DNA of 64,000 nt from Escherichia coli. Lineage in GTDB: Bacteria; Pseudomonadota; Gammaproteobacteria; Enterobacterales; Enterobacteriaceae. The position numbers are program-made. This document shows, piece after piece, positions 6,785 to 12,700 of the stretch (the stretch's first letter is position 1; each line of letters opens with the position of its first letter). The DNA is taken from NCBI RefSeq assembly GCF_003790525.1, contig NZ_CP033635.1; one strand, 5' to 3'.

Positions 6785-9700
6785 TAATCTCACCACTTAT
6801 GCCCGCACTCCCTTCCCCGAGTGCGGGTGTTTGCGCATAATTGACCCCTGTGCCTGAACTTACCACCTGGGTGAGTTCAGGTTTATTTCACTTCTTCCGT
6901 GACATTTTCATGTTCTTGCGGTCTAACACGAAGTGTTTTTAACGTCATTTAGACTGACCGACAACGGGCAGTTTTTTATTACCAGGATAGTTGATCAGGG
7001 GTTCACATGCAGGGCACAAAAATTCGACTTTTAGCGGGCGGTTTGCTGATGATGGCCACTGCTGGCTATGTGCAGGCAGATGCGCTCCAGCCTGATCCAG
7101 CATGGCAACAGGGGACGCTTTCCAACGGTTTACAGTGGCAAGTGCTGACTACACCCCAGCGTCCCAGCGATCGTGTTGAAATTCGCCTGCTGGTTAATAC
7201 CGGTTCGCTCGCCGAAAGTACACAACAGAGCGGTTACAGTCACGCCATCCCTCGTATTGCGCTAACGCAAAGCGGTGGCCTTGACGCAGCGCAGGCGCGT
7301 TCATTGTGGCAGCAGGGGATCGACCCTAAACGCCCGATGCCGCCGGTAATTGTCTCTTATGACACCACGCTGTTTAACCTGAGTTTGCCCAATAACCGTA
7401 ACGACTTGCTGAAAGAAGCGCTCTCTTATCTGGCAAATGCCACTGGCAAACTGACTATCACGCCAGAAACCATCAACCACGCGCTGCAAAGTCAGGACAT
7501 GGTGGCAACCTGGCCTGCCGATACTAAAGAGGGCTGGTGGCGTTATCGTCTGAAAGGATCAACCTTGTTAGGTCACGATCCTGCCGATCCGCTGAAACAA
7601 CCCGTTGAAGCGGAAAAGATTAAAGATTTCTATCAGAAATGGTACACCCCGGATGCAATGACGCTGCTGGTGGTGGGAAACGTGGATGCGCGCTCGGTCG
7701 TCGACCAAATCAATAAAACGTTTGGCGAACTGAAAGGCAAACGTGAAACACCGGCTCCGGTGCCGACGCTTTCTCCGCTGCGTGCGGAAGCGGTGAGTAT
7801 TATGACCGACGCGGTGCGTCAGGACCGGTTATCTATCATGTGGGATACGCCGTGGCAGCCGATTCGTGAATCAGCCGCACTGCTGCGCTACTGGCGTGCG
7901 GACCTGGCCCGTGAGGCGCTGTTCTGGCACGTTCAGCAAGCGTTAAGCGCCAGTAACAACAAAGAAATCGGTCTTGGATTTGATTGCCGTGTGCTGTATC
8001 TGCGTGCGCAGTGTGCCATCAACATCGAATCACCAAACGACAAGCTGAACAGCAACCTTAATCTGGTGGCGCGTGAACTGGCAAAGGTTCGCGATAAAGG
8101 TCTGCCGGAAGAAGAGTTCAATGCGTTAGTGGCGCAAAAGAAACTGGAGCTGCAGAAACTGTTTGCCGCCTATGCGCGAGCTGATACCGATATTCTGATG
8201 GGGCAGCGGATGCGTTCGTTGCAAAATCAGGTCGTCGATATCGCGCCGGAGCAATATCAGAAACTGCGTCAGGATTTCCTTAACAGCCTGACGGTGGAGA
8301 TGTTAAATCAGGATCTGCGTCAGCAGTTGTCGAATGATATGGCGTTAATACTGCTGCAGCCGAAAGGCGAGCCGGAATTTAACATGAAAGCGTTGCAGGC
8401 GGCCTGGGATCAAATCATGGCCCCATCGACTGCGGCTGCCGCCACATCTGTCGCCACGGATGACGTACATCCTGAAGTGACGGATATTCCACCCGCACAG
8501 TGATAAATAACCCGGCAGCGTTTCTTCTGCGCTGCCGGGATTAACGGTAATTAATAAGTTACCGTGATATACCCGCAGAGATTTTTCCCGGCACGGCGGT
8601 AGCGTGCAGATAATTACTGACTGCTGTGGTTTATAGAAAAGGAAGTAACCACACTTTGTGAACGTAACGTGCTAAAGGAATATGAATGCGCTACAAAGTC
8701 ACACTGTTCTTGCTGACTATGATTCTCTGCTTAACAGGGTTCTATTCCTGCAACAAGAACTTCCTCTTACTCTGGGATGCCAATAATATGTATGTCAGCA
8801 CAAGAAATAATATCGATAAAGACAAGGTAAAAATAGAATTCGGTATCAGCGTCAACACGATCAACCGAGAGACGGATGCCGAATTATTTACTGACAGAGC
8901 GAAGTATAGAATTATCTTCGATGGTAACCTAAAAAACAGGATGATAAATGAGTACGGCGAAAATGATTTTTTAATTACCTACGATGACCGCTGCTATTTA
9001 TCATTTCGTCAATTTAAAACCAATCGTCGTCATCAACATGACTATTATTTTGACTTCTTTAACAACAATGGGAATGTCTTTGTCACAGTCGAAATCAAAG
9101 GCGAGAACCCACTTAAATTTACGCGTAGTTTAAATGATATGCGTCAGCAGTTTTCACCAACTCGTGAGGATAGCCCTTCTCACTCCTGCAAGGTTATTTC
9201 TTCAGATCCTTCTTAAACACTGGATCTGGACAATCACGACCAAAATGCGCAGACCAGTCAAAAACTTTACCGTTTTTCACGTAGCGTTGATAAATTAATG
9301 CACCGGTTTCTGTATCACGATATCTGACCCAACTTGCAGCATGGCATAACACGGCAGCCCAAGCCTGGGTTTTAGGGTGAAGTAAATCGGCAGATTGTCC
9401 GGCCCATTCCGCAGCCTGCCAGCGGTAATGCAAAAAATGATCATCAGCGGTGGGGATTGCATGGCGAATACGTTGTTTTTCTTTACGACTTATCCACTGA
9501 TCGTTATTTCTGTATTCAAAGAGTGCTGAATACTGCCCACTGGAAATAGCATTATCGGGATACATTTCATAAGCCACCAATTCGATACCACTGAAACGTA
9601 AAAGCCGCGCAGCTTCGTATTGCGCCTGGGCGCGTTGTTTATCAGGGATATTTTTATTTTTTGCTATCGCCATTAAATCAGCCAGTTTTTGTGCGGCCTG

Positions 9701-12700
9701 GCGATGATCGGGAATATCAAACCAATTGATGGCCTGCTGATACTGACCATTACGTATTAATCGTCTACCTAATAGTGCACGTAATTTAACATCCGTGGGA
9801 ATGATATCTGGCGAAATATAATAACCGTAACTGCTCTTGTTTAAATCTATAGGTTTTAAAGGATGCTGAGGTGCTGGTACGTTTTTTTCAACAAACGCGT
9901 GTAACTCTGACAAGGTCAAAACGTTTTCTGCCACCCAGGCTAAATCAGCCCAATAGAGATCTTTGGCCTGGTAAAATAATGCGGTGGCCTGAAGATAATC
10001 ATCGCGTTTTAATGCCACAATCGCCTGTTCACTGGCAATACGGCAAGACGGGATGGTAACTTTATCGGCATGATAATAAGGGCTTTCCGGGTCCATACTT
10101 CCCCAGACTTCATCGGTAGAGAACAGCGGGGCTGCGCGAGCATAGTGACGCGTTGCCAGTGGAATATCTCCGGCTCGTAATGCCATTTTTGCTTTTAACC
10201 ATTCGCTTAATCCACTTTCTGGCGCATCCTGCAACAGCGTTTGTGCTAACGAATAATTTCCTGCCCGATACGCCAGTGCTGCCAGGCGATCGCTATAACT
10301 AAATCCTTTAACTCTGTGTTGACTTAGCAACTTAATTAAACGGTCGCGATGCGTTGGACAGGTATAATCTACAAGGTCCTTAGTACAGGCTTCGCTAACA
10401 TACCCCCAGTCATGACGAATAAAGAGCTCTGCGATTACCAGTTGCTGAACCAGAGAATCATTAATAACCGACTCCAGCAGTGGTAAATTTTTCTCCCTGG
10501 TTATATACAGCGAAATCATCCGTAGCGACGCTTTCCCGGAGGGCGAACCCTGGGCCGCTTGCCGGGCATACATTTTTACTGCCGCAGCGACATCACCTTT
10601 TTTCAGATAATAATGCCCAATCTGACCGAGACTGGCGAGAGAGAGCAATTCAGGATCGGCTGCTCCATTACGCACTTCTTCAATGATTTGCTGATAACGC
10701 TGTATGGCCTGCTCAGCAAGTTCCTGATTAAAGCCGCCTTTATTGATTATAAGATCGAGATTGTCGTCAGTGGCATCAAATCCCCCCCTTGCCAGACTAT
10801 ATAGCGTAGCAAGACGCCATTCCCCTTGCTCTGTTTTCGGCAAGGCTAATAATTGCTGAAAGTAAGGGCTATCGTATTTTCCCTGATGAAAATCCTTAGC
10901 TCCTGAATAATAAAGCCTCTGCGCCTTAGATAATGGCTTCTGCAATTTTTGCGTGATTTCCAGTATCCGATTTTGCGCAGGAGGCTCAGCATCATCATCT
11001 GTATTTGCCTGCGTTGCCTCCGCGGGCGTATCTTCATGCCATATCGGTAAATCAGGATCGCGTTTAGCCAACTGTTGTACTTCAAAGACAAAACTGCCAT
11101 TTGGCATTTCCAGCAGTGCGCTATTGCGGTCAGTTAACAGATGGTTAGGAATAAATGGTCCACAGGCATTAACGTTGGCGCTAATTAGTGAGAGAAATAC
11201 AATAACGGAAAGCCGCGATATTTTAGGGGATAACATTAAACTCTCCTTGAATTTTTTGATTGCAGCGCGCCCATCCCAGCGGACTGCTTTCTCCGGCGCG
11301 TAGTTGCCTGGCGCTTCCTCTCACAAAATTCAGGCTGGATGGTCCAGGTTGCACCTGATAGTGGCTGGCTCCATCAGCGAATAGACAATCTGCATTGGAC
11401 ATAATTATTTGTTTTGGCAATGGCGCATCAATTACGCCGCTGTTTTTAAAGGCCAGATCAAAAAGTTGCTTGTCTGCATGTTGAGTAATTATTAACGACC
11501 AGCGCGGAGTCAGCGGTTGATGTTGAATCACAGCTTCAAGCGTTGTCAGGGACCAGGCGCGGCGATCGCCTGCTAATGGTAGCCGAAACCATACCAACCC
11601 CTGTAATCCATGCGGTGGTTGCTGTTCTAAATATTGAATGAAATCGGCAATTGTTTGCGGCGACACACTTAATTCACGCATCTCTTCGGCAACGTATAAC
11701 GGAGCTTCACTCTCGACGCGATTATCACTGGTGAGCGCAGAACCGTAAGCGGGCAATGCGATGAAAAAAGGATGCGTGGTTTGTCTGGCATATTGCTTTA
11801 CCCAACGCTGCGCCAGACTGGCATCTAACAGGCCTTTTTCGGGCGATAGCACGTTATGTACCTGCAAAACCGAAGTGTCCGCAATCCGCAATAATCGGGC
11901 GAGATGTGGTGATTCAAGCCAGGTAGGCAGGACGGTAATGCTAAGTTTTATATTTGTAGGAAGTGCCTGATGTAACGTACTAAGTAGGGTCAGATAGTCC
12001 GGCAATTTTGCTGTTGGCGCGTCATAATCAATTTCTACCCCTACCAGCGTAATACCAGCTTTTTGCCACTCACGTAGGGTTTGTTGAATATGCTGGATAA
12101 TTTGCTGGTTATTAAGCCGTGTAAGCTGACCTTCGAGTCGCGCGACCAGCCAGACCGGGCGACCATCTTGCTTAATAAGTGAAGTATTAACCGTAAAGTG
12201 TCGGATGCCTTCTTGCGGGTGAAATTGCATCCCGAGTACGCGAAGCGTAGAGAAAAGCGGGCGGCTTCGTTTGAGTGCCTCGTTATGTTCTGCCGTCCAG
12301 ACGCGTTGCCAGATATAGACTTGCTGATCAAAGCGAAGCGGTTGTGAAGGGGTAAATAAAATATGCAGCCCGTAGCCCAGGCAGATCAGAAGAAGTGAAG
12401 CTGCAAAAATCCTTTTGCAAGATGGCATATTGTTACGGAATTACGATTATCAACAAGCTGATAGTATACCGACGAAACTATTAACGGAGAACGAATATCT
12501 ACCCGTTCTCCGTCAAAAACCATTACGCAGGCATCGCTTCACGCGGGATAATCGCGCCGCGATACTGAATAACGGTACTTGCGGTCAGGTGCCCGCGTTT
12601 CGCTGCGTCTTCCGCACTGCCGCCCGTCAAACGTACCGCCAGATAACCGGCACTGAAAGAGTCGCCAGCTGCGGTGGTATCGATCACTTTTTCTTTCGGC

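Follow-up and report, generated by a model that had tools for sequence, protein, structure and literature searches.

A DUF3142 protein and its TPR-like partner form a conserved, predicted envelope gene pair in a strain-variable insert between yhjJ and kdgK of Escherichia coli

What is encoded at the yhjJ–kdgK junction of those Escherichia coli chromosomes in which the two genes are separated by about 4 kb? We addressed this question in a 64,000-nt stretch of contig NZ_CP033635.1 (RefSeq assembly GCF_003790525.1; "the window" hereafter means this whole stretch), where yhjJ (7007-8503, + strand) and kdgK (annotated at 12523-13452, − strand) flank an insert of 4,019 bp. In strain uk_P46212, whose junction is empty, the spacer between the two stop codons measures 95 bp, and BLAST similarity of the window to an empty junction (L012) stops at the yhjJ stop codon and restarts at the kdgK stop codon. 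The original prediction, made from the sequence alone, described the insert as an undescribed three-gene system. The separation of the flanking genes, the positions of the three open reading frames (ORFs) and a hydrophobic N-terminal leader on each of the three proteins all held up, as follows.

8504..12522, no strand: the whole insert, a stop codon-to-stop codon swap for the 95-bp yhjJ–kdgK spacer
11223..12428, − strand: DUF3142 gene (401 aa), encoding a predicted membrane-tethered, periplasm-facing GH18-like glycoside hydrolase
9194..11236, − strand: partner gene (680 aa), encoding a predicted exported, all-alpha solenoid resembling tetratricopeptide repeat (TPR) proteins
8686..9216, + strand: gene A (176 aa), encoding a protein with an N-terminal hydrophobic leader and a lipobox-like L-T-G-F-Y-S-C

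What remains of the proposal is a strain-variable insert coding for exported proteins, two of which, the DUF3142 protein and its partner, form a conserved and uncharacterised pair; the idea of a single three-gene unit did not survive. With a probability of roughly 0.55, we read the pair as an active hydrolase of glycans containing N-acetylglucosamine (GlcNAc) together with a dedicated partner, acting on an external or imported substrate, for example chito-oligosaccharides, or on one still to be named.

Judged by sequence conservation, the three ORFs are real genes rather than chance ORFs, since each has many conserved homologues. All three are annotated in RefSeq in E. coli SMS-3-5 (NC_010498.1), which is 100% identical to the window, gene A and the partner gene as hypothetical proteins and the third as a "DUF3142 domain-containing protein." The insert had been thought, by eye, to be richer in AT than its surroundings, and a count agreed: its GC content is 45.3%, versus 49.7% in the rest of the window, and GC at third codon positions ranges from 39 to 46% in the insert versus 57 to 65% in dctA, yhjJ, kdgK, pdeH, and yhjG.

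The DUF3142 gene and the partner gene make up a self-contained two-gene operon, transcribed from 12428 to 9194 on the minus strand. The last 14 nt of the DUF3142 gene are shared with the start of the partner gene, whose ATG has an AAGGAG ribosome-binding site ahead of it and whose translation is presumably coupled to that of the upstream gene. To gauge how widely this arrangement is kept, we scanned one genome per species (~100,000 species-representative genomes) for relatives of the DUF3142 protein, found matches in 342, and extracted the neighborhoods of the best 80 loci. At 78 of these 80 species-level loci, the partner gene lies immediately downstream of the DUF3142 gene on the same strand. 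One locus, in Hafnia paralvei, has no partner gene within 6 kb, and in Enterobacteriaceae bacterium B14 (L043:7150-11230), one DUF3142 gene is followed by two tandem full-length partner copies, each of which scores ~810-820 bits with the partner profile. The same gene order, often with the overlap, recurs in unrelated neighborhoods of Serratia, Pseudomonas and a Klebsiella-like soil contig, as well as in an alphaproteobacterial metagenome-assembled genome (MAG), a JGI contig and another proteobacterial MAG; a Rhodanobacteraceae MAG carries a partner gene without a DUF3142 gene. Clustering of the ORFs neighboring the 80 loci yielded no third family common to more than two genera, and at the loci examined, no conserved glycosyltransferase, synthase, porin, bcs, pde, or secretion-system gene stands beside the pair. 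By these comparisons, the pair qualifies as a widely conserved, previously uncharacterised module, predicted to belong to the cell envelope.

Fusions of the two proteins were considered as Rosetta-stone evidence for the pairing and set aside. Specifically, the apparent fusion P0409 (1,176 aa) keeps the partner signal peptide internally and has a truncated beta-sandwich, and probably results from a frameshift or from faulty gene calling where the two genes overlap. A further entry in the AlphaFold Database (AFDB), A0A8S0H9A0 (1,101 aa), was flagged as a fusion from its length alone and was not used as evidence.

The original prediction could assign none of the three proteins to a family, a verdict that changes for two of them. 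The 401-aa protein matches Pfam DUF3142 (PF11340) with an E-value of 1.1e-75, residues 88-285 aligning with model positions 1-201 of 202. Its AlphaFold model, built on a 34-sequence alignment, has a pLDDT of 90 and a pTM of 0.84; secondary structure read from the model by DSSP, together with residue conservation, defines the following elements.

12354..12428, − strand: N-terminal signal anchor, residues 1-25 (MPSCKR, then a 19-residue hydrophobic stretch; modelled helix 3-25)
11526..12329, − strand: predicted (beta/alpha)8-like barrel, residues 34-301, eight strands alternating with helices
12021..12035, − strand: putative catalytic motif E132-I-D134-Y-D136 at the end of strand beta4, invariant in 113 representatives
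11229..11501, − strand: predicted C-terminal beta-sandwich, residues 310-400, with the cysteine pair C348 and C389

In the model, the barrel can be superposed on GH18 catalytic domains. Across the 113 representatives (30-49% identity), the invariant residues are W40, R97, E132, D134, D136, T165, P168, W170, Q189, H191, E241, W280, P284, and D288, and they lie at or just past the C-terminal ends of the barrel strands, which is where the active sites of TIM barrels are located. In the second domain, C348 and C389 are invariant or nearly so among the relatives. The beta-sandwich may serve in carbohydrate binding or protein docking; its profile match to the C-terminal immunoglobulin-like domain of the pilus chaperone CsuC is weak and not significant (E about 0.5).

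The family is sizeable, with 2,119 clusters at 50% identity, 814 of them with E ≤ 1e-30, and the two-domain form of about 400 aa predominates among the top 150 representatives. Its AFDB neighbors are all unannotated DUF3142 proteins of Alpha-, Beta-, and Gammaproteobacteria. Searches of NCBIfam, PADLOC and PHROGs with all three insert proteins returned nothing meaningful, the weak matches to PrsT TPR, Csx1, and after-VIT being noise, and a literature search found "DUF3142" mentioned once, incidentally, and no mention of PF11340, the RefSeq accessions or the guessed locus tags.

Next, we compared the 401-aa protein with GH18 enzymes. A similar acidic motif occurs at the end of beta4 in 3fnd, 4q6t, ChiB, chitotriosidase, and SleL (4s3j), at 10-17% identity, and we take the L-P-A-Y-G of beta7 in the window protein to resemble the GH18 x-P-x-Y-G-R. 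In a weak alignment with SleL, D134 falls on the GH18 Asp and D136 on the catalytic Glu, and the following helix and beta5 match as well. An hhalign comparison of the DUF3142 profile with E. coli K-12 ChiA, whose own membership of GH18 is uncertain, gave no match. In fold, the DUF3142 protein resembles GH18 enzymes, and its mechanism is probably GH18-like too; by sequence, it is not a member of GH18.

The closest known relative is TfeC of Yersinia pseudotuberculosis, described as an antifungal chitinase from a type VI secretion system (T6SS), namely, T6SS4, by Zhu et al. 2026 (Nat Microbiol 11:240), according to two reviews (PMC13008689, PMC13162877). TfeC shares with the window protein the Pfam DUF3142 family and the barrel, and the family profile finds its structures (PDB 8Y6T/9VTV) with an E-value of 2.5e-11, improving to 7e-14 with a 113-sequence profile, in the beta4-beta6 region. 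The two proteins have the motif G-x-[EQ]-I-D-[YF]-D-A-x-T-x-x-L-x-x-Y in common, with a beta4 signature of G-V-E-I-D-Y-D-A in the window protein versus G-L-Q-I-D-F-D-A in TfeC.

The N termini of the two pair members suggest where they act. DUF3142 proteins of Enterobacterales have a basic N terminus followed by a hydrophobic helix of 18-19 residues with no obvious cleavage site, and at the anchor position of the Pseudomonas orthologues, a canonical L-x-G-C lipobox was found by a simple regular expression in 51 of 75 proteins. The enzyme has C348/C389 and the partner C631/C669, conserved cysteine pairs that would fit disulfides in an oxidising compartment. We infer that the DUF3142 enzyme is membrane-tethered and faces the periplasm.

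The 680-aa partner is, according to its model, a TPR-like helical-repeat solenoid: the model is all-alpha and essentially without strands, and contains no beta-barrel porin. No Pfam family reaches significance against the partner, and a sequence search of the PDB with its profile returned designed or generic TPRs only. Full-length homologues with 25-45% identity range from Enterobacterales to Xanthomonadales and Alphaproteobacteria. Two nearly invariant cysteines, C631 and C669, could be joined by a disulfide. The most constant feature of the partner lies at its N terminus:

11156..11236, − strand: partner leader and A24-C25-G26-P27 junction (A24-P27 at 11156-11167), with x-x-A|C-G-P invariant

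This x-x-A|C-G-P follows the hydrophobic leader in all 34 aligned homologues and in 79 of the 79 partners among the 80 loci. A firm claim that the partner is an outer-membrane lipoprotein was dropped after the positions preceding the cysteine had been tabulated: a small residue (A/G/S/V) occupies position −3, a bulky or polar one position −2, and Ala position −1 without exception, a pattern like that of signal peptidase I sites. This pattern is found in the same Pseudomonas genomes whose DUF3142 proteins bear canonical lipoboxes. By its sequence, the partner would be a soluble periplasmic protein that starts with an invariant Cys or, alternatively, a lipoprotein of an atypical kind.

On the reading that we prefer, the N-terminal signal anchor of the DUF3142 protein, or a lipoprotein anchor in Pseudomonas, would keep it on the periplasmic side of the inner membrane. 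The protein would work as a retaining glycoside hydrolase on a beta-linked, GlcNAc-containing glycan, cleaved through a substrate-assisted mechanism analogous to that of GH18, in which D134 would position the N-acetyl group of the substrate and D136 would serve as acid/base, in place of the Asp-x-Glu of GH18. The partner, with Cys-Gly-Pro at its mature end, may serve the enzyme as its dedicated scaffold, regulator or substrate-presenting subunit. Chito-oligosaccharides or chitin are the substrate candidates by analogy with TfeC, the alternative being glycans of the cell's own envelope, namely, peptidoglycan or poly-N-acetylglucosamine (PNAG).

Several observations weigh against this reading. 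The Pfam GH18 hidden Markov model (HMM) does not match the DUF3142 protein even at E ≤ 10, and the D-x-x-D-x-D-x-E signature of GH18 is not intact, reading E132-x-D134-x-D136 with Asp at the position of the catalytic Glu. The alignment with SleL, which is the sole bridge to GH18 at the sequence level, is non-significant (E = 2.1). TfeC, with 262 aa, is essentially the barrel alone, is only 21% identical, and lacks the anchor, the beta-sandwich and the partner. The N terminus of the partner is closer to a signal peptidase I site than to a lipobox, which bears on whether the protein is soluble or anchored. Finally, we know of no chitinase that needs a 680-aa TPR partner, and the biology of the pair may exceed simple chitin degradation.

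Among the alternatives, the one that survives best is that the tethered enzyme cuts glycan strands of the cell's own peptidoglycan, or else an exopolysaccharide in the making, for example PNAG, under the control of the TPR partner or localised by it; we consider it unlikely. Two lineage-specific modes of tethering, the transmembrane anchor and the lipobox, suit an envelope substrate, and the pairing of the two genes is strict. Outside the DUF3142 family, the sequence profile picked out no glycoside hydrolase but SleL, which appears again, with Cwp19 and PgaB, among the structural neighbors of the enzyme; the fold matches of the partner include the envelope TPR proteins PilF, AlgK, LpoP, and SprE. 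There are also precedents for such a scheme. LpoA/LpoB/LpoP and NlpI control peptidoglycan enzymes, and PgaA and PelB have TPR domains on which PgaB and PelA dock. Like the window pair, the PgaB-PgaA, PelA-PelB, AlgK/AlgX/AlgL, and BcsZ-BcsC systems set a TIM-barrel-type glycoside hydrolase beside an envelope TPR protein, but these systems differ in that the window pair comes without a synthase or glycosyltransferase, a c-di-GMP receptor, a beta-barrel porin or any other conserved gene. LpoA, LpoP and NlpI are likewise exported helical-repeat proteins with a Cys directly after the leader and a genetic tie to an envelope enzyme; however, the window partner is much larger (680 aa), the similarity is generic, and its enzyme is a glycosidase-like barrel, not a penicillin-binding protein or an endopeptidase. 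Remodelling of the cell's own glycans is further disfavored by the lack of any peptidoglycan-synthesis or exopolysaccharide-synthase gene conserved beside the pair, by a partner that has no porin of its own, and by TfeC, the only characterised DUF3142 protein, which acts on chitin. Moreover, most E. coli strains do without the module, which argues against a core cell-wall function.

A less probable alternative, which we regard as improbable overall, is that the protein has no catalytic activity and acts as a chitinase-like, glycan-binding (lectin-like) or inhibitor subunit in complex with the TPR protein. The broken signature (E-x-D-x-D) and the failure of the GH18 HMM to match are what such a protein would lead one to expect, but the three acidic residues of beta4 are invariant in the 113 sequences along with H191, E241 and D288, a pattern typical of an active site, and TfeC, reported to be an active chitinase, also has D-x-D.

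Far less probable than either is a TfeC-like weapon, that is, an antifungal or anti-competitor chitinase delivered by a T6SS or otherwise secreted, with the partner as its chaperone, adaptor or immunity protein. The shared family and barrel speak for it, as do the deeply shuffled alleles in Escherichia (described below), which are often seen in conflict-related genes, and a gene of the TriTu immunity family at the same junction in some strains. Whereas TfeC is described as delivered by the T6SS, the window protein has a Sec-type membrane anchor and a TPR-like partner gene, and leaders or lipoboxes of this kind, present on both proteins, are not known from T6SS effectors: the enzyme has a transmembrane anchor in Enterobacterales and a lipobox in Pseudomonas. 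In the E. coli flanks, the annotation lists no T6SS genes, including vgrG, hcp and PAAR, nor do any appear among the genes called at the examined loci, and a periplasmic TPR protein of ~700 aa is unlike known immunity proteins.

The remaining gene of the insert, gene A, has a different history. Its 3′ end overlaps that of the partner gene convergently by 23 nt, and its protein has no match in Pfam, NCBIfam, PADLOC, PHROGs, or the PDB. Relatives in Escherichia are 80-88% identical, and all other named relatives (43-60%) belong to Bacteroidota, namely, Riemerella, Tenacibaculum, Aquimarina, Marivirga and Cyclobacteriaceae; a core, YGENDFLITY...SFRQFKxNRRHQHxY, is conserved with Flavobacteriia/Cytophagia proteins at ~50% identity. 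These relatives, together with a GC content of 38%, point to a cross-phylum transfer from Bacteroidota to Escherichia. The Bacteroidota versions have a plain N-terminal transmembrane segment, and the Cys (L-Y-S-C) occurs in Escherichia versions only. In Tenacibaculum, the gene lies within a run of small genes that include SMI1_KNR4 and DUF1963, and in Riemerella, it lies among housekeeping genes. An orphan role resembling that of polymorphic-toxin immunity proteins is possible but unsupported: gene A's own protein matches no known immunity family, and only a neighbor gene in another strain matches TriTu.

We then asked how often the insert and its parts occur in 5,426 complete E. coli genomes. 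The whole insert is present in 30 of them (24 at ≥99% identity, 4 at ~93% and 2 at 87%), and a homologue of gene A is found without the pair at the same junction in ~170 further genomes, at ~90% nucleotide identity. In a spread sample of noncarriers, the flanks were 277 bp apart, the empty state, in 23 of 24. Among the 80 species-level loci, gene A occurs only in the single Escherichia locus. Since gene A is found without the pair in ~170 E. coli genomes and is missing from the pair loci outside Escherichia, the three genes do not travel together, as they would have in a single system, and gene A is, on this distribution, a separable cargo unrelated to the pair.

Comparison of junction variants (the window and loci L002, L003, L004, L005, and L019) revealed several states. 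The junction may be empty (95 bp), or it may hold gene A with the pair, four small plus-strand genes followed by gene A, or five small genes, including gene A, with the pair; in one further lineage, five more small genes stand beside gene A and the pair. In the three loci inspected that carried gene A only or a variant, gene A is preceded by several small plus-strand hypothetical genes, and strain 2013C-4282 combines small genes and the pair at the junction. In strain N3 (L003:4176-4349), one 57-aa gene matches the Pfam TriTu immunity family PF24689 (E = 1.7e-13); the other small proteins of the hotspot have no Pfam or NCBIfam family match. In variants lacking the pair, gene A encodes 194 aa and its 3′ end overlaps kdgK, so the pair may have been deleted there from an ancestor that carried all three genes. 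To judge from these sequences, the yhjJ–kdgK junction is a recombination hotspot with several alternative cargoes.

The module itself varies much more than its surroundings. Flanking core proteins are 97-99% identical between Escherichia lineages, unlike the module: relative to the window, the DUF3142 protein and partner of E. coli 2013C-4282 (L004) are 67% and 91% identical, respectively, whereas those of the Escherichia genome GCA_053006925 (L019) are 86% and 62% identical. The divergent Escherichia alleles are as distant as the alleles of Pseudocitrobacter. Because allele identities are shuffled in this way and the breakpoints, located by sliding-window identity, lie near gene boundaries, the data suggest repeated allele replacement at the hotspot. 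In L019 (1337-4710), yhjG, the AsmA-family gene, stands just 384 bp from kdgK with no pdeH called in between, which sets this contig apart from the window and the other E. coli loci. In E. coli strain E22 (NZ_CM143899.1, H49), an IS5-like ISKpn26 transposase lies inside the island, where the match spans 5,050 bp versus 3,851 bp.

That the three genes constitute one envelope or exopolysaccharide system tied to cellulose and cyclic di-GMP (bcsC, pdeK/hmsP, and pdeH), as had been speculated, is now very improbable and largely refuted by the comparative data, for although all three proteins have hydrophobic leaders, the insert lies within ~5 kb of bcsC, hmsP and pdeH, and one remote partner homologue is labelled "cellulose synthase operon protein C" by JGI (a label reflecting TPR similarity only), gene A and the pair occur independently, other strains hold alternative cargoes at the junction, and the neighbors of the pair in Serratia, Pseudomonas, Klebsiella-like, alphaproteobacterial and other contexts are unrelated genes, with no bcs, pde or glycosyltransferase gene kept there, so the nearness of the pair to the cellulose and cyclic di-GMP genes is a positional coincidence.

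As for how the insert arrived, no tRNA, Rfam family, direct or inverted boundary repeats, integrase, or transposase was found in it; this disfavors a mobile-element origin, and the insert was more likely gained through homologous recombination in its flanks. Two hairpins, both read from the sequence, lie near its ends:

8511..8539, + strand: GC-rich hairpin just 3′ of the yhjJ stop codon, CCCGGCAGCG...CGCTGCCGGG
12484..12513, − strand: hairpin between the kdgK stop codon and the DUF3142 start, ACGGAGAACG...CGTTCTCCGT

The first is likely a yhjJ terminator particular to the present junction variant, although a consensus terminator scan missed it; the consensus scans for promoters and terminators returned sites no more numerous than in shuffled sequence. 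The module starts 94 bp downstream of kdgK on the same strand, and since no strong sigma-70 consensus promoter was found in this 94-bp gap, read-through from kdgK or a weak promoter of its own is possible. For kdgK, a mechanical ORF list gives a 425-aa ORF (12523-13800, TTG start), which is merely an upstream in-frame extension of the annotated 309-aa gene (12523-13452).

What do these results mean for E. coli and for the family? For E. coli alone, the impact is modest, since ~0.5% of complete genomes have the module. A false lead, the link to cellulose and cyclic di-GMP, is removed, and the yhjJ–kdgK junction is documented as a cargo hotspot with mosaic alleles. The module is not a categorically new system: its closest known relative is TfeC, from which it differs in architecture, export route and genetic context. 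A bolder possibility, which we hold to be doubtful, is that the pair represents an unrecognised class of periplasmic glycan-remodelling machine, widespread in Proteobacteria, in which a GH18-like Asp-x-Asp hydrolase tethered to the inner membrane would act on the cell's own peptidoglycan or exopolysaccharide and would be gated by a TPR protein with an essential Cys-Gly-Pro (for lipidation, redox chemistry or metal binding). If that were true, the allele diversity in Escherichia would reflect selection by phages or competitors on an envelope-exposed complex. The first functional assignment in the DUF3142 family came in 2026, for an atypical, short T6SS effector, whereas the form that prevails in the best-scoring set of relatives examined, made up of the top 150 representatives and the AFDB neighbors, appears to be a Sec-exported, membrane-tethered, two-domain protein that almost always comes with a large TPR-like partner. 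For a "hypothetical" gene pair of Serratia, the Pseudomonas fluorescens group, Klebsiella and some pathogenic E. coli, our analysis thus offers a testable hypothesis, namely, that it may encode a D-x-D hydrolase of GlcNAc-containing glycans and its partner.

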